Shown one piece after another: positions 1-24,623 of a stretch of 64,000 nucleotides of DNA. A program made the position numbers and the translations under genes. The notes under the pieces were generated by a model, which searched no databases, was not told where the DNA came from, and saw only the letters and a list, made by a program, of their open reading frames with translations. The number at the start of each line of letters is the position of its first letter. The first letter of the stretch is position 1. Location of the stretch: assembly GCA_016211945.1 (NCBI GenBank), contig JACRHV010000004.1:130649-194648 (forward strand), read 5' to 3'. The stretch is from Minisyncoccota bacterium. GTDB taxonomy: Bacteria > Patescibacteriota > Microgenomatia > UBA1400 > UBA12028.

Positions 1-842
1 ACGTATTTTGCACATGCATGTCAGCTATCCAATAGCACAAGTCTCGATATATTTCATCTAAATTATTATCAACCTCTTGCATTGTTGATCTCACATTATT
101 CGTGGAAAACCCTTTCTTTTCCATCAATTTTATTGCAGAAACAAGCATATAGCAAGATTGAAGGAGTGAAAGCGCAAGCCCGTATCGTCCTTGTTTATAC
201 CCCTTCTCTGCAAAAAATCTTCGCATATATTCGTGAAACAGTGCATTGAGGAGCGATTGATCATCTTGCTTCTGTTCCGCTTCCAAAGAAGTATAGCGAT
301 TCATCCTGTCAATAAATTGATCAACTGTATCGTAGTTGTGATGAATAATGGCATTGTCTTCGTCTGCCTCCAATTCCATTGTCACTCCCGTAGAAATAGG
401 AAGACTATGGACAGCAGGCGGCCATGTCACGTAGTCCTTTTGGAAAAATCGAATAATATAATCCGGCCACCATCCTGTTTTTGCCCATTGGCCAAAAATC
501 ATGTTTTTTCTTGGCAGTGCATAGGCGTGCACAGTCATATCATTCGAAAGTTTTTGAAGCGTCATTGCGAGTGATGACGAAATCTCCTCATCTGCATCTA
601 ACACTAATACCCAGGGACCTTTTGCCTTTTCTATAGCCGTATTGCGAACAGGATCTGCGTACTTCACATCATCGACAGAAAGTATTTTTGCACCAAAACT
701 CTTTGCTATTTCAACCGTACGATCCTCACTCTTCATATCAACGACCAAAACTTCATTTGCCCACAGTGAAACAGAACGCAGTGCCTTTTCTACAGTGTTT
801 TCGGCATTTTTTGTATGAATGATGACTGAAATATTAGGCATA
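1..842 (-). CDS. Glycosyltransferase family 2 (5' part only; the gene runs off the window start)
   Basis: Manual translation of the minus strand from the ATG at 840-842: MPNISVIIHTKNAENTVEKAL...AKGPWVLVLDADEEISSS. It has the GT2 N-terminal fold signature, the VIIxTxN and DxD-like 'LDADEE' motifs. It is absent from the ORF track because there is no stop in the window. The start overlaps the next gene's stop by 9 nt. Confidence 0.75.
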
Positions 843-2045
843 TTTCTGTTCCCGTATAAAAAAGACTATGCAAAACACCATGGGAATAAATCGTAATGCA
901 TCTCGAAAACGTGTGAGTGGAAACATTCCAAGAAATACGTCTTTCGGGACAGCCAAGTACGGCGTCGTGTCCAAACCGAGCATGAGCATCGCAAGCGCGA
1001 ATATAACAAACTGCCTTTGAAATGAACGGAAAGGATAAAGCGTGAGCAGTGGAATATACCAAATATGAAACGGACTGGAAAACGTTTTCCCCGTGAGGAA
1101 AAGAGCAAACAGATACAGAAGTGAAGTACGCAAAAATATTGTGAATGTTTCAATGTTCGTCATATTTTTTCTTGATAGCTTTTTATATCCATAGAGAAGC
1201 ACTCCTAGAATAGCCCATGGGAATATAACATTCATCCCCTGTGTAACTTTTTTTGCCACTGGACCCACCATGGGAAAGTCCGGCCCCTGTTGCAGTCGTG
1301 ACTCAGTTTTTGTGACATCATTGATCACTTCAACGAGATATGTTCCAAACGCGCCATACTTCATAGGACGGTTTGCGTGAAACACGACAAAGACCGAAAG
1401 AGACGAACGATAGAGGACGAGCGGGAGACCCCACACAAGCACGCCACCTAAAAAACAGGCTAGAATCTCGCGTCTTAGTGAGAGTTTCTTTGTCATCAAC
1501 AGGGGTATTGCTAATGGTGCCGTCATGATTTTTATTGCAACTGAAAGCCAAAAAAGCGCCCAGGTAACAACTCTATTCAGTAATATGTTTTGTCTTTTCA
1601 AATATGCCCACATCATGGAAAGTGAGAATAATCCAAAAAATATGAGATCTATTCCTTCATACCAATAGTCTTTTGCCACAACACCCGCAAGAATATAGAA
1701 CAGTATTGCGCTCCACTGTAGTTTTGTTGAACATGGCAAACGAAAAACAGTATGGAGCACCAAAGAGAAGAGAAGTAGTTCGAAGATAAATATTTCTATT
1801 CGATAGTTCTGATAGTATTTCCCTATTCCACGCTGATCAATCTCCAACGGCAAGGAGATCAGAGGAATAACTGCGGGGGGATACTCGAATAATATCTTTC
1901 TATATGGTGTTAACCCATACCTCCATTGATTTGCGTACCGCTCGTAATCTTGTTTTACGTCTGAATAATATTGTGGCGGGTGTTGGAGTACCCAAAGCCT
2001 AAAGATCAAAAATACGATGAATAATACGATATATTTTACCTTCAT
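834..2045 (-). CDS. Polytopic membrane protein, putative GT-C fold glycosyltransferase (DUF2029/GT87-like)
   Basis: 403-aa ORF with about 10 predicted hydrophobic helices. No soluble catalytic domain. It sits inside a run of GT-C genes. The family assignment is inferred from topology only. Confidence 0.5.
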   Translation of the reverse strand: MKVKYIVLFIVFLIFRLWVLQHPPQYYSDVKQDYERYANQWRYGLTPYRKILFEYPPAVIPLISLPLEIDQRGIGKYYQNYRIEIFIFELLLFSLVLHTVFRLPCSTKLQWSAILFYILAGVVAKDYWYEGIDLIFFGLFSLSMMWAYLKRQNILLNRVVTWALFWLSVAIKIMTAPLAIPLLMTKKLSLRREILACFLGGVLVWGLPLVLYRSSLSVFVVFHANRPMKYGAFGTYLVEVINDVTKTESRLQQGPDFPMVGPVAKKVTQGMNVIFPWAILGVLLYGYKKLSRKNMTNIETFTIFLRTSLLYLFALFLTGKTFSSPFHIWYIPLLTLYPFRSFQRQFVIFALAMLMLGLDTTPYLAVPKDVFLGMFPLTRFRDALRFIPMVFCIVFFIREQKYA

Positions 2046-2062
2046 ATTTTCATTATACAGAG

Positions 2063-3625
2063 TTATAACTCCTTGTATGCATAGCCCATCTTTTGTAACA
2101 TTTCCTGTACGGATTTTCTGGACATTACGTTCTTATTAACAAAAAGGCACATGTCGGTATTGTGCTGAGTAACATACCCATACTGCTTCCATACATCATG
2201 CGGAAATAGCGCTTTTGCATCCTTTGTGGGACTACACCAACCTGCATCAACAAATGAAGGTTGGAACTGTGCATACATGCGTTCTTTTGCTAAAGAAAAA
2301 AGCGAAATAGAATCTGTTACTGGATAATCAAACACATAGTCATACGCAGAAGGTCGCTGTGCCACGAGATAGGTAAGGCTTCCCCAACCATGAACAAAAA
2401 CAGTGTCTGTTTGTTGAGACAACGCATGAATAAGTTCTCCTTTTTGAACATAGTCAAGGTAGTGTGTTGTGAACTCGTTTTCTTTCTCTACCTGTGCATA
2501 GAGAAACGATTGTGGATTGAGATAACACACACCAAACATAAGAAGAAGAATCGGGAATAGTATTCGTGTCTTTCTGTTATTCTTCCTATACTCACGTAAA
2601 CCAATGAGAGCAAAGGTGAAAATAGCCCCATACCACGGTAGTTGACGATAAGCCTCGTAAAACGCTGTTCCTGGAACAACAACTCGAACCGCAAGAAGGC
2701 CGAGAACTAAAAAAGAAAGGATGAGAACTCGACGATATTTTTGTATTGCAACCAGCGCCGTACTCACAAAAAGAATGACTCCCACAACCACCACTTGAAT
2801 AAGGCGAACATACGTTACTTTCCCAGAAAAAACGATGTATACCGGATAAAAAAAACTTTTTACTACACTCATCCAAAGACTTCCATTTTGTTTTATCTCT
2901 CCGGAAACAATGCCAGTCATGTTCAGTGAGGTCATGCTGAAAACATATGATTTCCACGGAAAAAGAGTGAGTATCAGAACCACGATAAAAAAGATCATAC
3001 TCAAAGAGAGTATTCCTTCGCGTGTTCTCCACACGTCTCGCATAATAATTCCATACATAATTAATGCAGGTGGTATATATGGTTCTCTTGAGAGTAAAAA
3101 CAGTAGTACACATGTTCCGTACAAAAGATAGTCATGATATTTCAATGGAGTGTTGTGCACCATAGAGTCCCACATTCCGGCAAAAAGTATTGCCGAAGGA
3201 TATACCAAAAGTGCTTCTGCTAAGAACAGATTGCCGAATGTATAAAACATCGTTGCAATGTGGAATGCGACAACACCCAAACCGATGTATCGAAGTTTCC
3301 AGATTGTAAGTGCGCCAAAAAAAACAAGATACATCCCAATAAAAATTCGATGAATTACTACGACTTTATACAACGTAAGTGGGCTTACCGCGTACTGAAT
3401 TATTGCGCTTACCATAGGCATAAGTGGTTGATGATTAAAAAAGATTTCACTGTATAACATCCTCCCTTGAATCATGTAATATCCGGCAACCCAATTATTA
3501 AATTCATCGACAAAACTAAACGATACTGATCTGCTGTAGGATACATAAAAAGTGAGTATTAGTAGAGCGATGCTCGTCATTAAGAAAAAGTTTTTCCGAA
3601 TGCACTGTGAAATACGTTTTACCAT
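2063..3625 (-). CDS. GT-C fold membrane glycosyltransferase (GT39/GT83-like) with C-terminal soluble domain
   Basis: 520 aa. An N-terminal TM helix is followed by a 'FVDEFNNW' acidic loop motif typical of the first extracytoplasmic loop of ArnT/PMT-type enzymes. There are multiple TM helices, then a ~130-aa hydrophilic C-terminus. Confidence 0.55.
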   Translation of the reverse strand: MVKRISQCIRKNFFLMTSIALLILTFYVSYSRSVSFSFVDEFNNWVAGYYMIQGRMLYSEIFFNHQPLMPMVSAIIQYAVSPLTLYKVVVIHRIFIGMYLVFFGALTIWKLRYIGLGVVAFHIATMFYTFGNLFLAEALLVYPSAILFAGMWDSMVHNTPLKYHDYLLYGTCVLLFLLSREPYIPPALIMYGIIMRDVWRTREGILSLSMIFFIVVLILTLFPWKSYVFSMTSLNMTGIVSGEIKQNGSLWMSVVKSFFYPVYIVFSGKVTYVRLIQVVVVGVILFVSTALVAIQKYRRVLILSFLVLGLLAVRVVVPGTAFYEAYRQLPWYGAIFTFALIGLREYRKNNRKTRILFPILLLMFGVCYLNPQSFLYAQVEKENEFTTHYLDYVQKGELIHALSQQTDTVFVHGWGSLTYLVAQRPSAYDYVFDYPVTDSISLFSLAKERMYAQFQPSFVDAGWCSPTKDAKALFPHDVWKQYGYVTQHNTDMCLFVNKNVMSRKSVQEMLQKMGYAYKEL

Positions 3626-3673
3626 TTTATTATTATGACACAGCTCGTGTGATCTTCATGGTATGCTACCATT

Positions 3674-5350
3674 ATGCGTGCTTTATGGATCGGTACTCTC
3701 GGCATTTTTTTCCTTGCACTTTTGGTTCGACTTCCGCTTTTTGGATCGATTCCAGCTGGACTGAATCGTGACGAAGCAGCGCTTGGGTACAACGCGTACA
3801 GCATCTTCAAAACTGGTAAAGATGAGTATGAAAAGGCATTTCCGCTAAGCATTACTTCATTTGGTGATCAGAAATTGCCTGGTTATGTGTATACACTCAT
3901 TCCATTTATTGCTCTTTTTGGATTGGAGACATGGGTTATCCGCATACCATCGTTTATCGCAGGAATTGCAATCATTTTTCTTCTCGGCATGATCGCAAAG
4001 CACATGAGTTATCTTTTTTTTAAACAGAAGACACATCAGCATATATTTGTGTGGTGTTCCATGTTTATTGTCGCAATAAGCCCTTGGGCAAATCATTTTT
4101 CAAGAGTAGCATACGAAGCACATCTCGCCCTTGCATTCTTTCTTGGAGGACTACTGATTTATCTCCGGGCGCGAACTTCACGAGGTTTCAAAAATACCGT
4201 ATGGTGGACTGCGTTGTTTTGGTCGGCAACGCTCCTAACATATCACAGTTATCACATCCTCATTCCACTTATGGTACTGGGATTGTTTGTCCTTGACACT
4301 GCAACAGTGTTTGCTACACGAAAAAAAATACTTCTTGCGTGTAGCCTTATCGTTTCTCTCGTTCTCACTGTCATGATGATTGGTGGAATATGGAGCGGTA
4401 ATACAAAAAAAAGTCAAGGTATTTCACCCTTTCATACAGACAGCGTGTGGAGGTCTGTGTTTACCTATAGGTCAGCAACACGAGATCTGGGAGTACTGCA
4501 AAAAGTACTGTTTAATCCCCCTGCAGAAATGGCAACACGCTTCTTGACCAATTACGCGACAACGCTCTCGGGAGGATTTTTCTTTGTTCGTGGCGGAGAA
4601 AATCCGGATCATAACCCAGGAGGAATACCAAACCTCCACCTTTTCGCACTACCATTTATCCTTATCGGAGTTGCGTCCCTTTGGGAAAAACGTACAGTAT
4701 CTGAACATAAAATTTTATTCATGTGGATTTTTGGTGCACTTGCAATACCGGCGTTTACCATACACCCAGAACACACGGTGCGATTATCCCCATTGTTTCC
4801 CACGCTTGACCTCCTTACAGGATTGGGGGTCACTCTCTGTTTCACATGGATGCGCACGAAATTTCAACAGTATGCGTATGGCATTATTTTCCTCTTTATC
4901 GTCATATGGAGCATGGGCAGGTACATGACACAATATCTCGTGCTCGCGCAAACATCCTCAGTTTCACACGAGAAATACCATCTTCTTGCCAAAGCGATAG
5001 AGAAGTACCGGACATCAATAAATGAAGTAGTGACACAGTCGCCTAGCTCATCACCATATATTTGGTATCTTGTAGAAACCCAGTACAACCCGCGCCTCCT
5101 CTGGTCGACTATTGATCGATACCCCGAAGATGCAAAATATTTCCGGCATGTCCATAAAGTTGGAAACGTAACATTTGAAAGCATTCAGTGGAATTCGCTT
5201 TTTGATCGTGTGAAACAACACCCGATCGTTCTTATTTTTGAGCCGCGAGAAACACCAGGAGAAATTCGAGAAAGTGGCAAACTTACATTTTTAGAGGCAC
5301 TGCGGGACCAGTTTGGAAATACACAGTATGAAGTATGGAGGGTGGAATGA
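3674..5350 (+). CDS. Glycosyltransferase family 39/83-like (ArnT/PMT-type) membrane protein
   Basis: 558 aa. 'RLPLFGSIPAGLNRDEAALGYNAYSIFKTGKDEYEKAFPL' is the DE loop motif of polyprenyl-phosphate-sugar dependent GT-C enzymes. It has about 11 TM segments and a ~130-aa C-terminal soluble domain. Confidence 0.65.
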   Translation: MRALWIGTLGIFFLALLVRLPLFGSIPAGLNRDEAALGYNAYSIFKTGKDEYEKAFPLSITSFGDQKLPGYVYTLIPFIALFGLETWVIRIPSFIAGIAIIFLLGMIAKHMSYLFFKQKTHQHIFVWCSMFIVAISPWANHFSRVAYEAHLALAFFLGGLLIYLRARTSRGFKNTVWWTALFWSATLLTYHSYHILIPLMVLGLFVLDTATVFATRKKILLACSLIVSLVLTVMMIGGIWSGNTKKSQGISPFHTDSVWRSVFTYRSATRDLGVLQKVLFNPPAEMATRFLTNYATTLSGGFFFVRGGENPDHNPGGIPNLHLFALPFILIGVASLWEKRTVSEHKILFMWIFGALAIPAFTIHPEHTVRLSPLFPTLDLLTGLGVTLCFTWMRTKFQQYAYGIIFLFIVIWSMGRYMTQYLVLAQTSSVSHEKYHLLAKAIEKYRTSINEVVTQSPSSSPYIWYLVETQYNPRLLWSTIDRYPEDAKYFRHVHKVGNVTFESIQWNSLFDRVKQHPIVLIFEPRETPGEIRESGKLTFLEALRDQFGNTQYEVWRVE

Positions 5351-6744
5351 AGAAAAAAGAATTGTTTATGTTCCTTTTTGTCTTCATTATATCGATGTTC
5401 ATTCGATTTTGGAGATATGAACACATCCCCTACCAAACAGACGGCGATGAAATGGCGTACGTCTTTGCCGGACAAAGTCTTGTAGAGTTTGGCGAACCTA
5501 TTTCGTGGTCAAGTTTTTCATATCCACAGTCAAGTACATATAAAAAAGTAGTTTTGGGAAACGAGAATCTACGTGCTAACGGAGAGTTCACATTGGTGCG
5601 GCCGTGGTTTGACCATCCTTACCTATTGGCGGTTATTGAGGGGTGGAACTCGGTGATTTTTGGCTATCATTTTCCGAGCATTCCACCATCGCTCGTTGTT
5701 CGCATACCGATGCTCTTTCTTGCTGGTGCAACATTGATTCTTGTTTTCGCTGTCAGCCGATTGCTTTTTGGCAAAACTCCCGCATTGTTCAGTCTTGCAC
5801 TTATGGGATTTACACCATCTATTGCCTTTGGGCAACGCATGGTTGTGGGTGAAAACCTCTTCATTCCCCTCATGCTCGCAGCACTTTACTGTGTGTTGAA
5901 AAAAACTCGTCTTGTTCTCCCCATACTACTCCTCGCCATGGCAGGTCTATCAAAAATTACCGGTCTTCTTGCAATACCCGTTACCATGCTTCCGCTTATT
6001 TTGGAGAAACGGTACAAAACTGCGGCAGTTCTATGTCTGGGATCTTTGGGTGTATTTTTTTCGCTCTATCTCTTCTATGCAGGCTTCCATGGCTGGCAAT
6101 CGTTTATGATTGTTATGCAGACACAAACACACCGACTGGTCGGTTGGGGAAATCCAGCTTTTATTCTTTCACACCCCGGTTTTCACACCTGGACGCTTTT
6201 AGACGCCGGCTATTATCTCATCCTTCTCTTTGGGCTTCAACCATTGCTTTCCCCACTCAAAAAGGAGAGAAGATGGCTTGTTCTTTCCATTATTTTCTCA
6301 GGTATTCTTGTTTGGATGACAGGTGCGGAACAGGACATGCTCGGGTGGTACAAGCTCCCCTTCTTCACTTTTCTCGCTATCTCATCCGGCATGATTATAG
6401 AGAAGGGAATTCCATCGTTTGCGGTTATCCTTGTATGGATGGCGGCGATAAATAACATCGGTCTTGTACGTTATCCTTTTCATCCTTTGCCATCAAGCGA
6501 AACGTTGCGATTTGTCGTTGGCACTCTTCTTGGAGGTTCTTTTCTTCTCTACAGTCTACCACTTTCCACAGAAAAATCGCTGAAACACACGCTACTTGTT
6601 GCCGGATTCATCTTCTATGCGGGTGTCAGTATTTATACCGTTGATCGCTTTTTTGCAGCTTCATGTGAAAGTCGACATTGTCCCACACCGCTCATGACAT
6701 TCGGACAGGTGATAAGAAATATGAGGATGCAGATACTCAAATAA
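5335..6744 (+). CDS. GT-C fold membrane glycosyltransferase (GT39-like)
   Basis: 469 aa. N-terminal TM then a 'YQTDGDEMAYVFAGQSL' DE-type loop, with many TM helices. It overlaps the upstream gene by 16 nt, so it is translationally coupled. Confidence 0.55.
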   Translation: MEGGMKKKELFMFLFVFIISMFIRFWRYEHIPYQTDGDEMAYVFAGQSLVEFGEPISWSSFSYPQSSTYKKVVLGNENLRANGEFTLVRPWFDHPYLLAVIEGWNSVIFGYHFPSIPPSLVVRIPMLFLAGATLILVFAVSRLLFGKTPALFSLALMGFTPSIAFGQRMVVGENLFIPLMLAALYCVLKKTRLVLPILLLAMAGLSKITGLLAIPVTMLPLILEKRYKTAAVLCLGSLGVFFSLYLFYAGFHGWQSFMIVMQTQTHRLVGWGNPAFILSHPGFHTWTLLDAGYYLILLFGLQPLLSPLKKERRWLVLSIIFSGILVWMTGAEQDMLGWYKLPFFTFLAISSGMIIEKGIPSFAVILVWMAAINNIGLVRYPFHPLPSSETLRFVVGTLLGGSFLLYSLPLSTEKSLKHTLLVAGFIFYAGVSIYTVDRFFAASCESRHCPTPLMTFGQVIRNMRMQILK

Positions 6745-6746
6745 CG

Positions 6747-8183
6747 TTACGTCCGTAATGTTCCCAACTCAAATAACAACTTTTTTCGTCCAACAACGAA
6801 AAGGGCTATTCCGTATGAAAGCACTCCGATAATTCCACCGGCAAACATCCAGACAAACGATCTCTCCCAATAAGAGAGCCCTAAGAGCAATATTCCTGCC
6901 ATGACTGCGCTAGCCACTCCCTGTCTCCACAACTGATCCCACGCTTCAATCTTGACAAATTTCTTTACCATCTGAATCGTGATAAAAGAGGTTCCGGCAA
7001 TCAAGGCTGACGCAACCGCAACTCCAGTGAAGGAAAAGAAGTACACACCAATTGGCGTTATGGTCCAGGTAAGTATGGTCCACATCACCATAAGTTTTAA
7101 TGTACTGTTAATCTTTCCTATCGCGTTTAAGGTGTTTGTCAGTGGAGATGATACTGCTGCAAACGCAACATTCATACAGAAAAAATAGAGAGAGGGAATG
7201 GCCGGTTGCCATTTCGCGTACTTTGGAATAATCGCAGTCATAGGGAGCGCTAATACGGAAAGCCCTACAAGCACCGGAAATATCACAAGCGTGATGAAGT
7301 AGAGTGATTTCTCTATCGCGCGTTTGAGCTTTTCCGGATGCTCTTGGAGACGAGAGAAGGTTGGGAAAGTTACAGACATAATACTGTTGACACTAAATTG
7401 ATACGGAAATAATGACCATCGCTTCGCCCAACTCACATACCCCATTTGAGTGGGATCCAAAAACCTTGCGAGAACCACAACAAACAAATCGTCTTTGATA
7501 CGCGCAAGAAAATCATTGAGTTGGAACTTCGCTCCAAATTTAAGAAGTGAGTGTAGCGAATTACGTGAAAGAGCCAATCCAATGGGCCATCGCTGAATCG
7601 CATATATCACGGCCACACCCACAATACTACGAGCTAATACCGCATACGTATAGCTTCGCACCCCAAATCCCTGAGCCGCTAACACTACCGCTATTCCATA
7701 AAACAGGACATTCTCAATAATTTGCGGAAACACCAATTTGCTAAACTCTAGCTTTCTCTCCAATAAAATCGATGGAATAGTTTTGAGTGATGCGAGAACA
7801 AATGAGAAGCCTAATGCATACAAAAGCATCAATCCGTCACCGGAAATACCTTTCTGCATCCTCCAAATTGGCGTGAGTGCAATGGTGAGACCAAAAATAA
7901 CGAATGCTAATCCTTGTTGAACGGTGAATGTTGTACGCAAGTCATCAATGGTCGGCTGATCTTTTTTCTGCACAAGCGCAGCCGCCAGCCCAACATCAGA
8001 TAAAAATGTCAGTAAACTTACTGCTGAGGTCACGATAAAATAAATGCCAAAATCTGCGGGTGTAAGATAATATCCCAACAGGACTGTTGCTACAAAACCA
8101 ACCGCCTGCAACGCAAGTGTGCGAAACGCGTAGCTGATAACTCCCCGAACCGACTTACGCCGGACGTCGTTGGTGTCGATCAT
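6747..8183 (-). CDS. wzx: Polysaccharide/oligosaccharide flippase (Wzx/MOP superfamily, 'polysaccharide biosynthesis protein')
   Basis: 478 aa, about 12-14 TM. The N-terminus 'VRGVISYAFRTLALQAVGFVATVLLGYYLTPADFGIYFIVTSAVSLLTFLSDVGLAAALVQKK' is the canonical Wzx/RfbX N-terminal signature. Confidence 0.8.
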   Translation of the reverse strand: MIDTNDVRRKSVRGVISYAFRTLALQAVGFVATVLLGYYLTPADFGIYFIVTSAVSLLTFLSDVGLAAALVQKKDQPTIDDLRTTFTVQQGLAFVIFGLTIALTPIWRMQKGISGDGLMLLYALGFSFVLASLKTIPSILLERKLEFSKLVFPQIIENVLFYGIAVVLAAQGFGVRSYTYAVLARSIVGVAVIYAIQRWPIGLALSRNSLHSLLKFGAKFQLNDFLARIKDDLFVVVLARFLDPTQMGYVSWAKRWSLFPYQFSVNSIMSVTFPTFSRLQEHPEKLKRAIEKSLYFITLVIFPVLVGLSVLALPMTAIIPKYAKWQPAIPSLYFFCMNVAFAAVSSPLTNTLNAIGKINSTLKLMVMWTILTWTITPIGVYFFSFTGVAVASALIAGTSFITIQMVKKFVKIEAWDQLWRQGVASAVMAGILLLGLSYWERSFVWMFAGGIIGVLSYGIALFVVGRKKLLFELGTLRT

Positions 8184-9816: not shown

Positions 9817-9834
9817 ACTTTCATTCTACCTGAG

Positions 9835-11307: not shown

Positions 11308-11338
11308 GTGATCATTCTAACATGTGGAAAATATTGTG

Positions 11339-12547: not shown

Positions 12548-13302
12548 TTTCTATACTTCCCCATCATATCTGTAACTCGAATACGCACAAGGTCAACAAA
12601 CATGCGCATTGAGTCTTTCACAGGGTCTACTCTGTTTGTCTTCGCGTACTTCCAAAATACCGGAACCTCGGCAATCTTCATTCCGTATTTTTTTGCTAAA
12701 TAGAGGAGTTCAACATCAAACGCTCCTGTAAACGCGTCTTGTCGAACATGATGAGGACGGTAAATATACAAGTGGGGGAAAAGTTTCTCCACCGCTTCCT
12801 GCGTAAACAATTTAAATCCGCATTGTGTATCTTGAATTCCCCGAACGGTGAGTATTTGAACAGCGAGATTAAAAACCTTACCCATAATATGCCGGTGAAT
12901 CGGCTCACGTTCTCTTTTTGCCCCTTGAATTTCACGTGATCCAATAACAACCTGGTATCCCTTCTCTATAAACGGCAATAATTTTTCAATCTCCGCTATG
13001 GGGGTCGCCTGATCAAAATCCGTAAATAACCGTAGTTTTCCTGTGGCGGCCATCATTCCCGCATATACTGTAGGCCCTTTGCCTCTGTGTAGGTTATCCA
13101 ACACGCGAACGCAATCATGTAATCGGGAAAATTCGATCAAATCGTGAAGCGATCCGTCTGTTGATCCATCATCGGTCAACACAACTTCCCATGAAAATGG
13201 TTGTGATTGTAAAAACTTCAGGACATCGTCCAATACATGACGTCGAAGGTTTGATTTTTCATTGTACGACGGGATGATAACTGACAAGTGTGGTTGTTTC
13301 AT
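12544..13302 (-). CDS. GT2 polyprenyl-phosphate sugar synthase (DPM1/Ppm1-like, soluble form)
   Basis: 252 aa. 'LSVIIPSYNEKSNL...VVLTDDGSTDGS...' plus 'GSREIQGAKRE' is the DPM1-like GT2 core with the DxD 'TDDGS'. There is a 4-nt overlap with the upstream gene. Confidence 0.8.
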   Translation of the reverse strand: MKQPHLSVIIPSYNEKSNLRRHVLDDVLKFLQSQPFSWEVVLTDDGSTDGSLHDLIEFSRLHDCVRVLDNLHRGKGPTVYAGMMAATGKLRLFTDFDQATPIAEIEKLLPFIEKGYQVVIGSREIQGAKREREPIHRHIMGKVFNLAVQILTVRGIQDTQCGFKLFTQEAVEKLFPHLYIYRPHHVRQDAFTGAFDVELLYLAKKYGMKIAEVPVFWKYAKTNRVDPVKDSMRMFVDLVRIRVTDMMGKYRK

Positions 13303-13306
13303 ATGT

Positions 13307-14827
13307 TTACTGGGCAGTGTACACGTATGCTTTTACTATACCGGGATAATCACGAACTGTCAGTAAAGAACTCTTGGGATGCTCTCGCATAAATTGCTGA
13401 ATCTCAAAAATTGGAGAGCCTACGGGATCTTCTCCGTTTTCAACGAGAACGATGAGCGTATCAAGACCCGTGTATTGGTATTCAGTTTGCGCCGGAACTT
13501 TACTAACCTCAAAAAAGTAACGATATTTCATCGCACGATACTCTCTATTATCGTTCAACAAGGCAATGTTATACTTCTGACCTGGTTTTATGAACGACGT
13601 TAAATTTTGAGAAACAGAACGTACTCCACGAAAACCGAGCGGATCTTCTGTCCAGTACGGCATCCGCACAACCAAATATGTGATGAACACAAGAATACTT
13701 AATGAGAGAATATTTTTTATCCATACATTTTTTTGCATTGCCCAAGCCAACGCAGCTCCCCCAAACAGAAATGATATCGGGAAAAGAAATCCGAAATAAT
13801 GGAAATACATGGTGTCACGATAGATACTCATTCCGACAAGCGAGAGAGCCATCCAGAGTCCCACAATCGTCATTCCATGAAATAGTTTTGGCGTTTTTTT
13901 CGATTGTTTCCACACATACACAAACAACACAGTAAGTATTCCAACCACTAAGGTATTTATGCCACGCATTTCCTTAGAAAACCCGTAGAGTTCTACGGTC
14001 ATCTGCATGCTTCGTCCATGTGAATCAACAATCGCTTGCCATATGCGTGAAAGCAACGGAGAAGACCTTTGCTGATCCTGGGAAAATTCCATAAATCCTT
14101 TTACGATAAGATGGTCATGTCGCAAATCAAATGCAAAAAGTGGAAGTATGGAGAGAATTAGAATACCCAAACAACATAACGCAATACTCACCATTGTACG
14201 TAAAGGGACCCGTCCCCAAGATCTACGTAGATCATAGATCAACACCACGACAGTAGGAAGGGCAGAGAGCAGTGCAACATAATGAAGGTGTGTCAACACC
14301 GCAAAACACGTTGCAACTCCCACCCAATACCAAGGGTTTTTTTCTTGAACTGCCTTGTATGTCCACCACATCATCATAAGTCCAACGAATGGCGCCGGAT
14401 TTGGTTGCCAGCTAAACCGCGATAATTTAATGACGATGGGAGAAAAAGTATACAGAACTGCACCAACTCTTGCTCCATATTCTCCGATAACATTCCGCCC
14501 AACAAGATAGACACCCACCGACGTCATCACACCCAATAATGCAACCGCTACTGCTGGACCTATAGGACTTGGATAGGTTAAGGCGAGAAATGGTGACATA
14601 ACATAGTAGTACAGAGGACCAAGATACATTTTTCCTACACTCGTCCCTGGACCAAGAAGTGTAATATCATGATTTACCAATATTTTTTTCATGATGATCG
14701 CGTCGCGACCTTGATCATCGAGAAACTCCACAAATGTCTCAAATCTATACAGACGCAAGAATGCAGAACACAGAAGAATAACGAGTGCAAAAATATATGT
14801 TTTCCGAATCATTTCTTTGTTTTCCAA
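13307..14827 (-). CDS. Glycosyltransferase family 39-like membrane protein
   Basis: 506 aa. 'LRLYRFETFVEFLDDQGRDAIIMKKIL' is a DD/DE loop motif after TM1. It has about 12 TM helices and a C-terminal soluble domain. Confidence 0.6.
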   Translation of the reverse strand: MENKEMIRKTYIFALVILLCSAFLRLYRFETFVEFLDDQGRDAIIMKKILVNHDITLLGPGTSVGKMYLGPLYYYVMSPFLALTYPSPIGPAVAVALLGVMTSVGVYLVGRNVIGEYGARVGAVLYTFSPIVIKLSRFSWQPNPAPFVGLMMMWWTYKAVQEKNPWYWVGVATCFAVLTHLHYVALLSALPTVVVLIYDLRRSWGRVPLRTMVSIALCCLGILILSILPLFAFDLRHDHLIVKGFMEFSQDQQRSSPLLSRIWQAIVDSHGRSMQMTVELYGFSKEMRGINTLVVGILTVLFVYVWKQSKKTPKLFHGMTIVGLWMALSLVGMSIYRDTMYFHYFGFLFPISFLFGGAALAWAMQKNVWIKNILSLSILVFITYLVVRMPYWTEDPLGFRGVRSVSQNLTSFIKPGQKYNIALLNDNREYRAMKYRYFFEVSKVPAQTEYQYTGLDTLIVLVENGEDPVGSPIFEIQQFMREHPKSSLLTVRDYPGIVKAYVYTAQ

Positions 14828-16005
14828 ATGAAGGTGCTGTAGATAAGGTAGTTGACCACCATACCCAATCCGGTCGCAAATACAAGCCAGAACATGCGGG
14901 AAAGTGTTGCTTGTCCTGTAAATCCCGTACCGAGTGATACGACAAATAATTGGATGAACACCGCACCAAACGAACTGAGGTTAAATTGAATAAACTTTGG
15001 AATAATTTGACCAACTGAGGTCATTTTGCGATCACTAAATGTCCATAGGTTATTCCAGGTAAAGTTAGAAACAATCGCACATTCGGCACCCAATGCAGAA
15101 GCAAGGCCGGAAACATTCACGAATTTGAGATAAGCCATTGACTGCATCCACAGTGCAGCGTTTTGTACAACGGTCAGACGAGAAAAGACGAACAATCCGA
15201 TAGTATTGATGACAAATCCCAACAGTCCAACAAATCCAAAGCGTACGACACGCATTGCCAATAATTCTTGAACACGAACTTTTATAATATAAAACAAAGT
15301 GTTTTTTATGTATTCTGCGCCTAACTTTGAGTGTCCCATTGTTCTGTCAATAAAATGAAATGGTACCTCAGCAACAGAAAATCCTTTTCTTACAGCTTTG
15401 TGCAAAAAACCAATTTGCCAGGTATATCCTGAAAATCTCTCCCCAGTCATTTCAGGGTACACCGCCTCATACACTTTTTTTGTGATCGCACGATATCCAG
15501 TAGTCCAATCGCGAATAACAAACGTCGTCAATACAAGATTAATAAACAGATTGCCAAAAATGCTCAAAAATTTTCGATGAAATCCCCAATTCCTTGGAAT
15601 AGATCCGCCGGAAATATATCGAGATCCAAGAACAAAATCGTATCCCTCTTCTATTTTCTGCAAAAATAGTGGAATTTTTTCTGGATCGTGTGAAAAATCA
15701 GCATCAAACTCAAAAATAATATCTGCCTTCAAATCCCCAAATGCTTCTTTCATTCCAATCAGGTATGCAACCCCCAATCCGCCTTTTTTTGCGTTTGTGA
15801 GCAAGTGAACATGTGTATTTTTTTTCGTAATGTCGCGAACCACATGACCTGTTCCATCGGGTGAACTATCGTCTACAACCAAGATGTGCATCTCAATATG
15901 CGCTGGTATTTTTAGAAAAACTTCGAGGAGGCAGGGAATTAACCTGCCGATATTTTCCTTTTCGTTATATGTGGGAATAATCACAACAGCACGAATATTT
16001 TTCAT
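14809..16005 (-). CDS. Polyprenyl-phosphate sugar synthase: GT2 catalytic domain fused to a GtrA-like 4-TM domain
   Basis: 398 aa. The N-terminus 'AVVIIPTYNEKENI...VVDDSSPDGT...FDADFSHDP...GSRYISGG' is DPM1/GtrB-like. The C-terminal ~120 aa (FGFVGLLGFVINTIGLFVFSRL...) is GtrA-like. Confidence 0.85.
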   Translation of the reverse strand: MKNIRAVVIIPTYNEKENIGRLIPCLLEVFLKIPAHIEMHILVVDDSSPDGTGHVVRDITKKNTHVHLLTNAKKGGLGVAYLIGMKEAFGDLKADIIFEFDADFSHDPEKIPLFLQKIEEGYDFVLGSRYISGGSIPRNWGFHRKFLSIFGNLFINLVLTTFVIRDWTTGYRAITKKVYEAVYPEMTGERFSGYTWQIGFLHKAVRKGFSVAEVPFHFIDRTMGHSKLGAEYIKNTLFYIIKVRVQELLAMRVVRFGFVGLLGFVINTIGLFVFSRLTVVQNAALWMQSMAYLKFVNVSGLASALGAECAIVSNFTWNNLWTFSDRKMTSVGQIIPKFIQFNLSSFGAVFIQLFVVSLGTGFTGQATLSRMFWLVFATGLGMVVNYLIYSTFIWKTKK

Positions 16006-16039
16006 AGAGTTCCATTATGACACGCCAAATTTTACGATG

Positions 16040-17011
16040 CTACTCTGTTGATTTCTTCTCACTCTCAAGTTCTGCCTCAACCATAATGCGAACGAGTTCG
16101 GGGAAACTCGTTTTTGGAGCCCATCCCAACTTCTCTTTTGCTTTTGACGCATCTCCAATAAGATAGTCTACCTCTGCGGGACGGTCATATTTTGCATCAT
16201 GTTCATAGATCGCCTCCCAATCTGGAATTCCCGCTACTTCACACGCCAATCTCAGGTACTCGCGAACTTCGTGTGTTTGACCTGTTGCGATAACAAAGTC
16301 ATCGGGACTTGATTGTTGGAGCATAAGCCACATCGCCTCAACATAGTCCTTTGCGTATCCCCAGTCTCTTTTAGAGTTAAGGTTACCAAGTTTAATTGTT
16401 TTGTCTTTTCCGAGTTTTACGCGTGCAACACCGTTTGCAATTTTACGCGTCACAAACTCTAAACCACGACGAGGAGACTCATGATTAAATAAAATACCAG
16501 AACACGCAAAAAGATTATACGATTCGCGATAGTTTACCGTAATCCAATGGCCATACACCTTTGCGACACCATATGGTGAACGTGGATAAAACGGCGTTGT
16601 TTCTTTTTGCGGCGTTTCCAATACTTTTCCGAACATTTCCGAGCTTGAAGCTTGGTAGAATTTTGCATCCGGCTTTGCGAGTCTCATCGCTTCTAGTACT
16701 CGCGTTACACCCAAAGCCGTAAACTCACCTGTAAGCACCGGCTGATCCCAAGACGCCTGCACAAAACTTTGGGCCGCAAGATTATAAATTTCGTCTGGTT
16801 TGACTTGTTGGATGGCGTATGTAATCGAGTGCTGATCAATAAGATCACCGGAAATCAACTCAACCTCATGAATAATGTGTTGAATGCGCTCAAAATTTTG
16901 CGTGCTTGTTCTTCGCGTAAGACCGTAAACCTTGTACCCTTTTTCAAGTAAGAACTCCGCAAGATACGATCCGTCTTGACCAGTAATACCGGTAATCAAC
17001 GCTGATTTCAT
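16040..17011 (-). CDS. gmd: GDP-mannose 4,6-dehydratase
   Basis: '[36 protein letters not shown]' plus conserved GMD blocks throughout. The start is chosen at ATG 17009-17011, giving an ATGA overlap with the upstream gene. The ORF-track N-terminal extension is rejected. Confidence 0.9.
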
Positions 17012-17946
17012 ATGTTCCTCCAATATTCCAATACTCTTTGTAACGTATGTTCGAGTGGAATTGTCGGATTCCACCCCAATTCTCGAATCTTTCTGTTATC
17101 TGCCACAATCTCCTTGATGTCAAGTGGGCGGAGACGTGACTCATCTTTTACAACCTTCACCACAGCCTTCGACATTCCAACTAATTTCTGAAGTACCTCG
17201 GTCATACTTATACCGACCCCTGTTCCAACGTTATACACATCGCCACCATTTCCTTTTTCCATAAGCAGAATATACGCATGTACCATATCTTTGACATCAG
17301 TAAAATCGCGGATACCAGAAAGATCTCCCACATGTAACTCGGCCTGCTTACCTTTTTCAATCATGGCAATTTGTTTTGCGAATGCAGAAACAGCAAACTC
17401 TGGAGACTGCCGTTCGCCAATATGATTGAATGGTCGAACTCGAATGATATTGAGTTTGTATGAAACTGCGTATGCATACGCCAACATATCTTGCGCTAAT
17501 TTTGAGACGGAATACGGATTGATAGGGCGAAACGGATGAGACTCAGACATCGGCAATTCGCCATCTTCACTCAGTCCATACTCTTCCGCAGAACCAATAA
17601 TAAGTGTTTTTGCTTGTGGAACAATTTCTCGCAAACCCTCAAGAATAGAAAACTGTAATCCAAGATTATTGATCAATAATTCTTCACCCTTTTGAAAGCT
17701 TTCTCCAACAAACGCAAACGAGGCAAGATGAAAAATCCAATCTGGCTTTATGTTTTCTAGTACTGTTCGTACTGCAGTTTTGTCTGTTAAGTTCACATTT
17801 ATTATGTGATCTTCTTGTAGTAAAGATGCAATAAAATCAGGTTTGCCAAACGCTGTACCATACACATCGGAATGCCCTTTCGCCAATAACGCTTCTATAA
17901 GATGCGATCCAGCAAAACCGGAAGCTCCTGTCACTAAAATCTTCAT
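17008..17946 (-). CDS. rmd: GDP-4-dehydro-6-deoxy-D-mannose reductase (Rmd-like SDR; makes GDP-D-rhamnose); GDP-fucose synthase is less likely
   Basis: 312 aa extended SDR: '[16 protein letters not shown]', YxxxK, and '[10 protein letters not shown]...RDFTDVKD', which resembles the Rmd 'RPFNHIGPGQ...RDFLDVQD' more than the Fcl motifs. It is translationally coupled to gmd. Confidence 0.65.
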
Positions 17947-20669
17947 ACAACTCCTACGCCAATATATGTTATTCCCGCTTTTTTCAACTCGTCGCGCTGT
18001 GCAACATATTGATTGCGCACATCAATAAAGACACCACGACCACCCATCGCTTCTCTAATACGAGAAACTTCCAGTGAAATAAGTTCTGGCCACTCGACTA
18101 AAATCATCACAACATCCGCACCAGCAATCGCTGTTTCCACTGTTTTTGCATACGTGATATTCCACTGAGGGAACCATTCTTTTGCTACCGGAATGGCCAT
18201 GGGATCGTATGCTGTAACTATTGCACCCGCATCAATGAGAAGTGGAATAATCTTTGTTGAAGGAGCCTCACGCATATCATCAGTATTTGGCTTGAATGAA
18301 AGACCTAAAATCGTTACTTTCTTTCCTTTCCACCCCCCAACAGCATCCTCATATCGCTTCATAAGATGTGAGATGCGATCTTCATTGAGCTCATTAATCT
18401 TCACCATTAAATTCCCATCTTGTTTGATCGCTTTTGCATACGCTGCAAGTTCCTTGACGTCTTTTGGAAAACAGTTGTGTTGAATAAGTCCTGAAGCGCC
18501 AACAACAGTGTGTGTGCTTGTTTCGAGACTATACACAAATGTATCTACTTTCTCGCACTTGACTTTAAGAATTTTTAGCAAAGCATATGAGCCATTGCGC
18601 TTGAATCCACGTTGCGCAATTTTACGTTGGTACCCTGCGAGTATTTTTTTGATATTATTATGACGTTTATTTCCAAATAAATCAGTAAGTTGTTCCATTT
18701 GGTTATATCCATTTATTCGTAAAATATATGCGAGATGTTTTGATTTATTCATCATCCTGCTACGAATCGATGGTACAAAACCAAGACTTTGTAATAAAAG
18801 TGCTGTTCCGTCTGCTAATGATTTACTTACCGTTGCATACTCAAACATCATATTCTTACCATGTTGCAATCTTGTAACAGCTCCATCTCCACTAAACATT
18901 CCTCGAAGCAATTCGAAACGCAACTCAGATGACACGTTAAATGCTATGCTTGGTAACGTTTTATCCACGGAACAGGTGCCCATCTTTAAAATATCTCTAA
19001 ACAACCAAGAAAAAACTCGACTTGATACGATGGTTGATATTGCATGAGTGCTATGTCTTTCAATATGCTTCATTCCTAAATTTTGAAGAATACGCTGAAC
19101 ATCGGCAATATATTCATGCTCTAATTCACTGAAGGAAAACTCTACCCTATCCCGTTGCGCGCCAACTCTTCCAATATCACGAGTTATACATCCTTCAGCC
19201 AAATAGTATCCACAAAGTCTCATAAAATCTTTATCAATCGGAATATGTGCATTAATCTTTGTTGCCGCACCTTTCGCCGTATACAGTTGTAAAGTGTTTA
19301 TAGGTAAATGTAACGCTCTACGTTGAGAGAGATAATAATATAATGACAATGACATTCGATTATTTTGTTTTATTTCATACGGATAGCGAAGCATACTCTT
19401 TGGAATATGTCGTGCATATAATGGATAGTATTTGGTAAAACTCAAGTCTGTTGATGAAACATATACTGCGCTCATTAATGATGTATTTTGCAAAAGATCA
19501 ATAAGATTCAAATCATTTGGTTTTTGAACGATTGGCAAGTCCATAAGTGCCATTACTTGGTCTCTTGTAGAAACGGCAAAAGCAGGAACTACTTTAAATG
19601 AATCACTTTCCCGAAGAATAACTGGATGATCAGATGTAACGCGCATTGTGCGCCCCATACTCGTACTGATCGTAACCATATCACCTATATACCGACGACG
19701 AGTTACGGCATAAACATCAGCAAGACTGGGACTTCCTGTATCAAGATTAAATGCAAGTACTTTTTGATTCTTAGGTTTCAAGACTTCTACCTCACCAAGA
19801 GATGATCGTTCTCCTTTTTGCTGAAAAATATTGTCTAATCGCTGCGTTCGAACATTTGGACTATTGAGGGTAAAAATTGTTTCATCTCCCTCAAAACAAC
19901 TTCCTCCGTATCCAAATCCCGGGTACCAATAATGCTTTCCGATACGCTTGTCAAATCCAATGCCTTCAATGACTTCAAGAATATTCGCTCCATTTACCTC
20001 GCACAAGTTTGCAATTTGATTGATAAAGGTTATGCGAGTTGCGAGATAGGCATTTGCCGAGTACTTGCACATTTGTGCACTCTCCGGTTTCATCACAACA
20101 ATTTCTGCCTGAAGTGGTTTGTGCAACTCTGACAATGTTTCAATAACCTTAGTTTCCGTTGCGCCAACAATAATACGATCTGGATGAAGTGTGTCTTGAA
20201 CTGCCGATCCTTCTTTCAAAAATTCCGGAAGTGAAGCCATTGAAAAACGAACTTGCGTTTTTGCTTTGATTCTTTCTGCAACTTTCGCGTTGGTTCCCGG
20301 AGGAACGGTACTTTTAATTGCAACAATTGCGCCATCTTTGAGGTAAGGTGCGAGACTTTCTGCGGCAGCAAAAACATATTTCAAATCAGCTTGTCCGTCT
20401 GAAGCTGAAGGCGTTCCAACCGCTATCATGATGACATCGGCTTGCGAAATTGCTTCTTGATATGAAGTTGTGAAATGAAGGTCTCCTTTTTCAACTCCAG
20501 TTTTCACTAATTCTTCTAGCCCTGGCTCGTAAAAGGGAATCTGCGCTTTCTTAAGTTTTTCTATTTTTTCTTCGATAACGTCAAGTCCATAGACCGTATT
20601 CCCAAAAGACGCAAAAACCGCAGAGGACACAACACCGACAAAGCCTGTTCCGATGACTGTAATAACCAT
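17943..20669 (-). CDS. ugd: UDP-glucose 6-dehydrogenase (nucleotide-sugar dehydrogenase) precursor containing a 475-aa intein
   Basis: N-extein residues 1-257 are a typical UGDH NAD-binding domain: 'MVITVIGTGFVG...' ending in 'GFGYGGS'. The C-extein starts 'CFPKDVKELAAYA...', the UGDH catalytic-Cys motif. The exteins sum to 433 aa, a normal UGDH length. Confidence 0.85.
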   Translation of the reverse strand: MVITVIGTGFVGVVSSAVFASFGNTVYGLDVIEEKIEKLKKAQIPFYEPGLEELVKTGVEKGDLHFTTSYQEAISQADVIMIAVGTPSASDGQADLKYVFAAAESLAPYLKDGAIVAIKSTVPPGTNAKVAERIKAKTQVRFSMASLPEFLKEGSAVQDTLHPDRIIVGATETKVIETLSELHKPLQAEIVVMKPESAQMCKYSANAYLATRITFINQIANLCEVNGANILEVIEGIGFDKRIGKHYWYPGFGYGGSCFEGDETIFTLNSPNVRTQRLDNIFQQKGERSSLGEVEVLKPKNQKVLAFNLDTGSPSLADVYAVTRRRYIGDMVTISTSMGRTMRVTSDHPVILRESDSFKVVPAFAVSTRDQVMALMDLPIVQKPNDLNLIDLLQNTSLMSAVYVSSTDLSFTKYYPLYARHIPKSMLRYPYEIKQNNRMSLSLYYYLSQRRALHLPINTLQLYTAKGAATKINAHIPIDKDFMRLCGYYLAEGCITRDIGRVGAQRDRVEFSFSELEHEYIADVQRILQNLGMKHIERHSTHAISTIVSSRVFSWLFRDILKMGTCSVDKTLPSIAFNVSSELRFELLRGMFSGDGAVTRLQHGKNMMFEYATVSKSLADGTALLLQSLGFVPSIRSRMMNKSKHLAYILRINGYNQMEQLTDLFGNKRHNNIKKILAGYQRKIAQRGFKRNGSYALLKILKVKCEKVDTFVYSLETSTHTVVGASGLIQHNCFPKDVKELAAYAKAIKQDGNLMVKINELNEDRISHLMKRYEDAVGGWKGKKVTILGLSFKPNTDDMREAPSTKIIPLLIDAGAIVTAYDPMAIPVAKEWFPQWNITYAKTVETAIAGADVVMILVEWPELISLEVSRIREAMGGRGVFIDVRNQYVAQRDELKKAGITYIGVGVV
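18474..19898 (-). mobile_element. Intein with LAGLIDADG homing-endonuclease domain, inserted at the Ugd catalytic cysteine
   Basis: Starts 'CFEGDETIF' (block A Cys1). Block B 'RVTSDHPV' (TxxH). LAGLIDADG motifs 'LCGYYLAEGC' (nt 19188-19217) and 'LLRGMFSGDGAV' (nt 18876-18911). Blocks F/G '...VYSLETSTHTVVGASGLIQHN' end in His-Asn, followed by the extein +1 Cys (nt 18471-18473). Confidence 0.8.
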
Positions 20670-20720: not shown

Positions 20721-21383
20721 ATGCAGATTGATATTCTCACAACATTACCCTCAATGTTTACTGGGCCGTTAACAGAAAGCATGATGAAGCGAGCGCAAGA
20801 TAAAAAACTCGCTGAGATCCGTATTCACGACCTTCGTCAATGGACACAAGATAAGCATCGATCAACTGACGACCATCCGTACGGAGGTGGACCAGGGATG
20901 GTGATGATGATCGAGCCAATAGATAAAGCACTTCAATCTTTCAAAGCAAAAAAAGGGACAAAGCAAGAACTCATCATTCTTACCTCTGCAAAAGGGAACG
21001 TGTACACTCAACAAACTGCACAAACATGGAGTACCTCGATCAAACGTCTCGTGATCATCTGTGGACATTATGAAGGTGTTGATGAGCGCGTTGCACAGTA
21101 TTTGGTTGACCAAGAGGTACGGATTGGCAACTATGTCCTTACTGGGGGCGAGCTTCCGGCAATGGTCATGATCGACAGCATTGTTCGATTAATTCCAGGT
21201 GTACTTGGCGATCACGAAAGTGTAAAAAATGAATCGCATACTATTCTTGGATATTTAGAATATCCGCAGTACACTCGGCCAGAAAATTACAACGGATGGG
21301 AAGTTCCACAAGTGTTATTGGGTGGAAATCATAAGGCTATTGAGGATTGGAGAAAGAATCCTACGTTAAATAAGTCCTTTTAA
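20721..21383 (+). CDS. trmD: tRNA (guanine37-N1)-methyltransferase
   Basis: 'MQIDILTTLPSMFTGPL...DDHPYGGGPGMVMMIEP...' is the canonical TrmD SPOUT signature. 220 aa. Confidence 0.9.
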   Translation: MQIDILTTLPSMFTGPLTESMMKRAQDKKLAEIRIHDLRQWTQDKHRSTDDHPYGGGPGMVMMIEPIDKALQSFKAKKGTKQELIILTSAKGNVYTQQTAQTWSTSIKRLVIICGHYEGVDERVAQYLVDQEVRIGNYVLTGGELPAMVMIDSIVRLIPGVLGDHESVKNESHTILGYLEYPQYTRPENYNGWEVPQVLLGGNHKAIEDWRKNPTLNKSF

Positions 21384-23552: not shown

Positions 23553-23561
23553 AAAACCCCC

Positions 23562-24575: not shown

Positions 24576-24623
24576 ATGATCCCTTGCATACTACTAGGCT
24601 TTTGATGTTTTTTCAAACCTCTA

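Follow-up and report, generated by a model that had tools for sequence, protein, structure and literature searches.

What might a bacterium with a genome of about 1 Mb assemble with a dense block of genes for polytopic membrane proteins and sugar-modifying enzymes? The question is raised by a 64,000-nucleotide stretch of contig JACRHV010000004.1 (here called the window), which comes from Candidatus Pacebacteria, a member of the Microgenomates within the Patescibacteria, or Candidate Phyla Radiation (CPR). An initial annotation, made from the sequence alone, described its first 20,669 nucleotides as a locus for assembling a glycan outside the membrane, built around eight consecutive membrane glycosyltransferases of the GT-C fold. 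All eight polytopic proteins encoded between positions 834 and 14827 are GT-C glycosyltransferases by sequence profile or fold. We refer to them as A, B, C, D, F, G, H, and J (Table 1); A is identical to the NCBI protein HZA34_01495 and C to HZA34_01505, both encoded on a 331-kb contig of a metagenome-assembled Candidatus Pacebacteria genome. Their genes are not strictly consecutive, as other genes, among them those of the Wzx-type protein E and the GT2 proteins I and K, are interleaved with them.

The eight proteins are 402–558 residues long, and a crude hydropathy scan identifies six to nine strong membrane helices in each. Direct Pfam matches above the gathering score are limited to D, G, and J, all to PMT_2; the additional match of G to PMT (PF02366) is partial, has 27.7 bits, and is the only PMT match among the eight. 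The two Pfam matches of F itself are sub-threshold, and both are to GT-C families (PTPS_related and GT-C_AftD). Proteins A, B, C, and H lack a meaningful Pfam match of their own, and no NCBIfam model matches A, B, C, D, or F. Protein H scores 48.8 bits against the MptA model TIGR03459 (cutoff 439) and 31.8 bits against the MptB model NF038066 (cutoff 40), which makes it a relative of MptA and MptB and not an equivalog. A database search with C returned 280 homologues, the distant ones of which (about 30% identity, about 90% coverage) carry PF13231 or PF02366; one homologue is named “glycosyltransferase family 39”, and JGI calls some of them “Ara4N transferase-like”. In the family of F, assembled from related loci, 15 of the 22 members match PF10131 with a best E-value of 8.7e-17, and others match GT-C_AftD, STT3, or PMT_2.

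An all-against-all phmmer comparison of the eight proteins detects no paralogy. For profile–profile comparison with hhalign, family alignments were built from the related loci, and the Wzx family served as a control. Families C, D, F, G, and J are linked to one another at probabilities of 91–99.5%, and the control scores under 6% with each GT-C family. Against the GT-C families, the values are 66–85% for B and 25–41% for A, which is no more than suggestive. No meaningful match among PDB sequences came from profile searches with the A, F, and H families. In fold comparison, A resembles ALG3, PIG-M, and PimE, and B resembles ArnT, Pmt4, and AftA, with ArnT as its best Foldseek match; neither folds as Wzy or WaaL. 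A, with 96 close homologues, and B, with 17, are two GT-C families missed by current hidden Markov model libraries. The initial identification of eight GT-C-like proteins is upheld by Pfam for D, G, and J, by NCBIfam for H, by homologues for C, by the family for F, and by the folds for A and B.

Acidic residues follow the first transmembrane helix by 8–20 residues in the GT-C families, and are conserved in 85–100% of the family members. The D-E or D-D pair that had been reported for at least five of the proteins is present in B (D40E41), C (D33E34), D (D38E39), G (D27E28), and J (D37D38), and D38 is invariant both in the family of D and in that of J. A single aspartate is conserved after the first helix of A (D29) and of F (D31). 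In H, D103, which comes after the third predicted helix and not the first, and D132 are invariant, and residue 26, just after the first helix, is always aspartate or glutamate (aspartate in 67% of the family members). The acidic first loop would face the outside of the membrane. According to Pfam, none of the eight proteins has a PMT_4TMC or MIR domain. Their presumed use of sugars linked to lipid phosphate as donors is predicted from the adjoining synthases I and K.

The best solved relative of K is the dolichol-phosphate mannose synthase (DPMS, or Dol-P-Man synthase) of P. furiosus (PDB: 5mlz; 2.5e-38 over residues 3–386), and the remaining ones are ArnC and GtrB. Protein I corresponds to the catalytic domain of K without the membrane helices, and its solved relatives are only the DPMS 5mlz, ArnC, and GtrB. 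PgfS is the best NCBIfam match of both proteins, below its cutoff. K and I are thus putative polyprenyl-phosphate sugar synthases. Protein E matches the NCBIfam models of a MOP flippase (1.7e-37) and an O-glycosylation flippase (5e-33), both sub-cutoff, and is a Wzx/MOP-family protein with predicted flipping activity. The Pfam, NCBIfam, and PDB relatives agree with the initial assignment of one flippase and two GT2 proteins of the polyprenyl-phosphate sugar synthase type. The gene order suggests that K-J and I-H are synthase/GT-C pairs and that G-F-E combines GT-Cs with the flippase, each as a functional sub-module.

The synthesis of GDP-D-rhamnose is well supported, because Gmd passes its NCBIfam cutoff and two Rmd reductases are the closest solved relatives of the neighbouring short-chain dehydrogenase/reductase, which itself passes no NCBIfam equivalog cutoff. 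We rejected a UDP-xylose synthase or GalE as the identity of this 312-residue protein, since the Rmd structures are by far its nearest solved relatives. The listed GTG start of gmd overlaps rmd, and translation probably begins some 20 codons further on. Ugd is interrupted at its catalytic-cysteine motif by a 475-residue intein with LAGLIDADG domains (DNA positions 18474–19898, minus strand), the junctions of which read GGS/C...HN/CFPKD. Ugd orthologues without an intein are present in the related loci L003 (429 residues) and L017 (454 residues), and in L038 the gene is split into two open reading frames (ORFs). The gmd/rmd pair and the intein-containing ugd had all been recognised in the initial annotation. 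A plus-strand trmD gene lies between ugd and the operon that contains the gene of a 265-residue protein and the Rml genes; the LCP transferase is located about 4 kb away on the same strand as the main block. Adjacency suggests that this Rml/LCP operon belongs to the same system. D-rhamnose, L-rhamnose, and glucuronate had been proposed as donor sugars on the basis of the flanking genes: the genes Gmd/Rmd, Ugd, and RmlBCD are indeed present, and the choice of sugars loaded onto the lipid carrier stays conjectural.

The genes ugd, rmd, gmd, K, J, I, H, G, F, and E form a minus-strand run from position 20669 to 6747. It is followed by the convergent plus-strand pair C and D, and then by a minus-strand unit of B, A, and a GT2 gene that leaves the window at its start. 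Intergenic gaps in the block range from -67 to +51 bp, and the overlapping packing of same-strand genes suggests co-transcription. Scans of positions 1–20000 for promoters and terminators gave no excess over shuffled sequence (25 versus 48 expected, and 19 versus 16, respectively), and so the operon limits rest on gene spacing only. The divergent spacer between B and C (3626–3673) is only 48 bp long, or about 93 bp if B begins at the later ATG of its 505-residue database version, and contains weak promoter-like hexamers on both strands, in a scan that was at chance level overall.

The GC content of the block is even (0.385–0.444 in 2-kb windows), and the reading frames of its genes are intact. 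The independent 25-kb Logan assembly L001 is 99.95% identical to window positions 1–11416 without gaps. Past the window start, it contains the remainder of the GT2 gene, followed by genes for a second GT2, a methyltransferase, a 510-residue PMT_2 protein, and, on the opposite strand, a 495-residue protein; further out there are a DUF1653 protein, an RmlD-like reductase, another GT2, a secreted 685-residue protein, and one more GT2. The 510- and 495-residue proteins (L001 positions 12718–15738) match the profile of J at 99.8% and 99.6%, respectively. The contiguous locus therefore holds ten GT-C genes, eight of them inside the window. The 685-residue protein was rejected as a further GT-C, as it is secreted, has a single N-terminal helix, and shows no GT-C signal. 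The bounds 1–20669 drawn initially were too narrow: the locus continues past the window start and downstream to position 25775, and spans at least about 35 kb (window positions 1–25775 plus about 10 kb past the window start), or about 3% of a 1-Mb genome.

A scan of a genome collection with the profile of A identified 46 loci, and the window proteins were mapped onto their ORFs. Essentially all the loci are from Microgenomates/Patescibacteria, and several record titles are doubtful: many in the series L004–L047 bear the title “uncultured Pseudomonadales bacterium”, Methylococcaceae, or Vitreimonas sp., and probably represent metagenome bins with a wrong label. Relatives retain the block trmD-ugd-rmd-gmd-K-J-I-H-A-G-F-E-(C)-D-B with 35–55% protein identity, and L003 has exactly this gene order, with C between E and D. 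As the initial annotation had envisaged, the set of eight is conserved in relatives: all eight GT-C families are present in L003, L004/L042, and L025, and seven in L038, while in L017 the beginning of the block is followed by the contig end. Genes F and E are adjacent in 10 related contigs, I and H as well as J and I in 5 loci, and I always adjoins H (5 related loci). In many relatives, A is flanked by four to six tandem C-like (GT39-like) paralogues, which are variable. Such arrays of A and C-like genes were observed near position 10000 in L005, L010, L012, L016, L021, L032, L039, L043, L044, and L046. The number of GT-C ORFs per locus of about 20 kb has a median of 5.5 and a maximum of 11. 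Dense GT-C arrays are a trait of the lineage. The variable tandem C-like arrays suggest a rapid diversification of extracytoplasmic glycosyltransferases in Microgenomates. Because the locus of about 35 kb is conserved across the group, its product is probably important.

The core mechanism of the locus is very probably the transfer of sugars from nucleotides to a lipid phosphate, the flipping of the lipid-linked sugars, and their use by GT-Cs outside the membrane, in the manner of mycobacterial lipoarabinomannan assembly or of the decoration of Gram-positive wall polymers. In the cytoplasm, Gmd and Rmd would turn GDP-mannose into GDP-D-rhamnose, Ugd would provide UDP-glucuronate after intein splicing, and RmlB, RmlC, and RmlD would contribute to dTDP-L-rhamnose. 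K, with its fused GtrA/DPMS-type membrane domain, and the soluble I, both of the DPM1/ArnC/GtrB type, would load sugar onto polyprenyl phosphate. The lipid-linked sugars may reach the outer leaflet via the GtrA-like domain of K, the Wzx protein E, or both. There, the eight GT-Cs of the window, or ten in the whole locus, would pass sugars stepwise to an acceptor outside the membrane. The soluble GT2s probably pre-assemble a lipid-linked primer in the cytoplasm, and the adjoining LCP enzyme probably fixes the finished polymer to peptidoglycan. The sugar loaded by each synthase, the acceptor, and a single product shared by all the GT-Cs are elements of this scheme that we infer. Our preferred reading, which we hold to be probable with less assurance than the core mechanism, is a conserved Microgenomates envelope-glycan locus with an enlarged, multi-component transmembrane glycosylation system that produces a wall-linked or lipid-anchored heteroglycan. 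This product is our best guess because of the LCP and Rml neighbours.

Several observations weigh against the envelope-glycan reading. Library scans of the 64 kb found no initiating phosphoglycosyl transferase, Wzy, WaaL, or Wzm/Wzt ABC exporter, and none of the ORFs matches Wzz, Bac_transf, Glycos_transf_4, or an O-antigen ligase. Nor was RmlA found in the 64 kb. Only two synthases are present for eight to ten GT-Cs, and the donors of some GT-Cs may come from elsewhere, or some of these enzymes may have no relation to each other. Because the scores of H, I, K, RmlC, and RmlD do not reach the NCBIfam equivalog cutoffs, their specificities cannot be read off, and the link of Gmd, Rmd, and Ugd to the lipid-linked donors is one suggested by adjacency. 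The presence of Wzx without Wzy, WaaL, an initiator, or a chain-length regulator also sets the locus apart from a standard Wzx/Wzy capsule or O-antigen locus, a distinction already drawn in the initial annotation.

Among the closest known systems are the multi-component (three-component) transmembrane glycosylation systems of Gram-positive wall polymers, such as CsbB/GtcA/YfhO, GacI/J/K/L, CsdA-F, and GtsABC (PMC8035078). The three defining parts of this class, a GT-A synthase of C55-phosphate-linked sugars, a flippase of the GtrA or Wzx type, and a GT-C whose first loop is acidic, are all found here. In both, PMT_2-type GT-Cs predominate, some GT-Cs have no Pfam match, and rhamnose polymers and LCP enzymes are associated with the system. 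However, the known systems are one-to-one pairs of synthase and GT-C and attach individual side-chain sugars to a polymer of cytoplasmic origin, whereas the locus described here combines two synthases with eight to ten GT-Cs of at least five families, and no module for cytoplasmic polymerisation or ABC export was seen.

The locus may instead be a glycosylation island of several independent GT-A/GT-C pairs or lone GT-Cs that act on different acceptors, are clustered by co-regulation or exchange, and diversify their GT-C repertoire under phage or host pressure. The K-J and I-H neighbours resemble classical pairs of synthase and GT-C. In many relatives, A is retained amid variable tandem C-like arrays, and genomes differ in how many A and C genes they have and in where these lie. 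Several independent pairs coexist in Bacillus and Lactococcus (PMC8035078). However, at least three further genomes share the complete set of eight families, flanked on one side by the same nucleotide-sugar genes, and the same-strand genes overlap in their packing. We consider such an island possible but unlikely; it would alter the number of products and not the mechanism, and overlaps with the envelope-glycan reading.

Protein O-glycosylation, in which the PMT_2/GT39-like enzymes and DPMS-like synthases would modify serines and threonines of pilins, S-layer proteins, or adhesins, and the other GT-Cs would extend the glycan outside, has parallels in actinobacterial Ppm1/Pmt, Streptococcus mutans Pgf, and Pseudomonas TfpW. 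The score of G exceeds the Pfam PMT cutoff, some homologues of C bear the name GT39, I and K match PgfS best in NCBIfam, and E matches an O-glycosylation flippase, although the NCBIfam matches are all sub-cutoff. The closest solved Rmd structure, 2pk3, comes from an organism in which the S-layer glycoprotein carries D-rhamnose. CPR bacteria depend heavily on type IV pili (PMC6744442), and TfpW shows that pilins can serve as GT-C substrates; both points count for this explanation. A DPMS-like synthase together with PMT or PMT_2 GT-Cs is indeed common to the locus, to eukaryotic and actinobacterial PMT systems, and to the PgfS-PgfM1-PgfE-PgfM2 system of S. mutans. However, PMT_4TMC and MIR domains are lacking here, the scores are far below the equivalog cutoffs, and PMT_2 is just as typical of the wall-polymer decorators GacL, GtlB, and CsdD (PMC8035078). 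Moreover, an LCP ligase and Rml genes adjoin the block, no candidate acceptor protein is conserved in it, and none was found. We consider O-glycosylation rather unlikely.

Also among the closest known systems is the machinery of Corynebacterineae for lipomannan (LM), lipoarabinomannan (LAM), and arabinogalactan (Ppm1, PimE, MptA/B/C, Emb, and AftA-D). In both cases few synthases feed many GT-Cs, a ratio otherwise known from corynebacterial and mycobacterial LM/LAM and arabinogalactan assembly, and a heteroglycan is built outside the membrane. K is similar to Dol-P-Man or polyprenol-phosphate-mannose synthases, A is putatively GT87/PimE-like, H is MptA/MptB-like, AftA is among the best folds for B, and an LCP ligase, as used to attach arabinogalactan, is encoded nearby. 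The likeness to mycobacterial LM/LAM and O-mannosylation machinery, to which the initial annotation had drawn attention, is apt at the family level (A, H, and K, together with C, D, G, and J as PMT_2-type proteins). However, this locus belongs to an unrelated phylum with a genome of about 1 Mb, and PimA/PimB, the decaprenyl-phosphoarabinose pathway, and Emb-type carbohydrate-binding domains were not seen. Its nucleotide-sugar genes point to D-rhamnose, L-rhamnose, and glucuronate and not to arabinofuranose, and its genes form one compact block, whereas the mycobacterial ones are mostly scattered. Because no equivalog cutoff is reached, the proteins are analogues or distant relatives, not orthologues. 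A more specific form of the heteroglycan proposal, a LAM- or arabinogalactan-like heteroglycan built almost wholly outside the membrane, with A and B taking part and polyprenyl-phosphate-D-rhamnose made by K as a donor, is quite unlikely in our estimate. If it were correct, K would use GDP-D-rhamnose from the adjoining, syntenic Gmd and Rmd, and polyprenyl-phosphate-D-rhamnose would be a previously unknown lipid-linked sugar. The glycan would be the surface layer at which these symbionts encounter hosts and phages, and this would account for the diversification of GT-Cs in tandem arrays. The eukaryotic Dol-P-Man and Dol-P-Glc transferases of the endoplasmic reticulum (ALG3, ALG6, ALG9/12, and PIG-M) show sequence identities of only 9–16%, and the context here is bacterial, with no partners of N-glycan or glycosylphosphatidylinositol synthesis.

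An ArnT-type modification, in which a sugar would be placed on lipid A or another membrane lipid and confer resistance to cationic antimicrobials, is very improbable. ArnT is the best Foldseek match of B, I and K are ArnC-like, and the names of some homologues of C refer to Ara4N transfer; however, ArnA, ArnB, and ArnD are all missing from the window, the similarity to ArnC and ArnT is generic only, CPR cells are thought to lack a Gram-negative envelope (PMC6744442), and eight to ten GT-Cs far exceed the needs of one lipid modification. The chance that the block is an assembly chimera, raised initially as what might overturn the proposal, or a set of decayed genes without coherent function is negligible: the source is a metagenome-assembled genome and four of the eight proteins have no Pfam match of their own, but a chimera is ruled out because the gene order recurs in related genomes, and the collinear second assembly, the uniform GC content, the intact frames, and the conserved residues all speak against it.

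The component families and the logic of the envelope-glycan system are already known. What is new is the architecture, in which eight to ten GT-Cs from no fewer than five families share a conserved block with two synthases and a single Wzx, the occurrence of such a locus in ultra-small CPR genomes, the A and B families, and the synteny of Gmd/Rmd with a DPMS-like synthase. The literature searched contains no prior description of such a locus and no paper that links CPR with GT-C, ArnT, or GT39 enzymes; a Microgenomates genome paper only counts 29 glycosyltransferase genes. A large part of bacterial diversity belongs to CPR/Patescibacteria, whose members have minimal genomes and a life attached to other cells, and their surface chemistry is essentially undescribed. 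The locus points to concrete enzymes (K, I, and the GT-Cs), predicts D-rhamnose, L-rhamnose, glucuronate, and mannose as sugars, and adds two GT-C families.

Table 1. Genes of the proposed glycan locus and its flanking operon, with positions in the 64,000-nucleotide window and the evidence for each assignment.
Gene or product	Position	Strand	Evidence and remarks
GT2 glycosyltransferase, cytoplasmic	1-832	-	3' end cut at window start; open throughout; 297 residues in L001, with Pfam Glycos_transf_2 there
A, 403-residue GT-C of the ALG3/PIG-M/PimE (putatively GT87-like) structural class	834-2045	-	Fold; family without Pfam or NCBIfam model
B, 520-residue GT-C with ArnT/Pmt4/AftA-like fold and C-terminal extracytoplasmic domain	2063-3625	-	Rare family without model, 17 sequences found
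C, 558-residue divergent GT39/PMT_2-like GT-C	3674-5350	+	Homologues with PF13231/PF02366; hhalign 99.5% to J, 98.8% to D and G
D, 469-residue PMT_2 GT-C	5335-6744	+	PMT_2 28.2 bits (cutoff 26.1)
E, putative Wzx/MOP-family flippase	6747-8183	-	Polysacc_synt_3 6e-48
F, 553-residue GT-C of the PF10131 (PTPS_related) family with C-terminal extracytoplasmic domain	8155-9816	-	15/22 family members match PF10131; hhalign 97.6% to J
G, 490-residue PMT_2/PMT GT-C	9835-11307	-	PMT_2 2.8e-11 and PMT 2.5e-6, both above cutoffs
H, 402-residue GT-C resembling the polyprenol-phosphomannose-dependent mannosyltransferases MptA/MptB	11339-12547	-	TIGR03459 4.7e-13, NF038066 5e-8
I, 252-residue GT2 of the DPM1-like polyprenyl-phosphate sugar synthase type, without membrane domain	12544-13302	-	Glycos_transf_2 2e-22
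J, 506-residue PMT_2 GT-C, adjoins K	13307-14827	-	PMT_2 8.2e-10
K, 398-residue GT2 fused to four-helix GtrA/DPMS-type membrane domain	14809-16005	-	Glycos_transf_2 4e-28, GtrA_DPMS_TM 9e-12
Gmd, GDP-mannose 4,6-dehydratase	16040-17074	-	TIGR01472 439 bits (cutoff 415)
Rmd-type GDP-6-deoxy-D-lyxo-4-hexulose reductase	17008-17946	-	PDB 2pk3 2.4e-61, full length; 6x3b 1.8e-41
Ugd, UDP-glucose 6-dehydrogenase with intein	17943-20669	-	Three UDPG_MGDP_dh domains, Intein_splicing, and LAGLIDADG_3 (Pfam)
Flanking operon: 265-residue protein without family, RmlD, RmlC, RmlB, LCP transferase	21366-25775	-	RmlB passes TIGR01181, LCP passes TIGR00350, RmlC and RmlD pass Pfam cutoffs only
RmlD, RmlC, RmlB, and LCP glycopolymer-to-peptidoglycan transferase	22160-25775	-	Pfam/NCBIfam

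The ORF of the 265-residue protein (21366–22163, minus strand) shares 4 bp with rmlD and 18 bp with trmD, and the protein matches nothing in Pfam or NCBIfam. Beside the LCP and Rml genes, positions 26300–27376 of the plus strand encode a trans-type polyprenyl diphosphate synthase (PF00348), which may supply the primer for the carrier lipid; a cis-prenyltransferase (UppS) was not seen in the window. Rfam and tRNA scans of the window gave no matches, and the remainder of its 64 kb consists of housekeeping genes. A 121-residue protein with an RRM_1 RNA-recognition motif is encoded at 25787–26152 (minus strand). At 31353–32603 (minus strand), the gene of a 416-residue protein with two lamin-tail domains adjoins those of an M23 peptidase and FtsEX, and at 57589–58806 (minus strand) a Fic-domain protein is encoded between enolase and cofactor-independent phosphoglycerate mutase.

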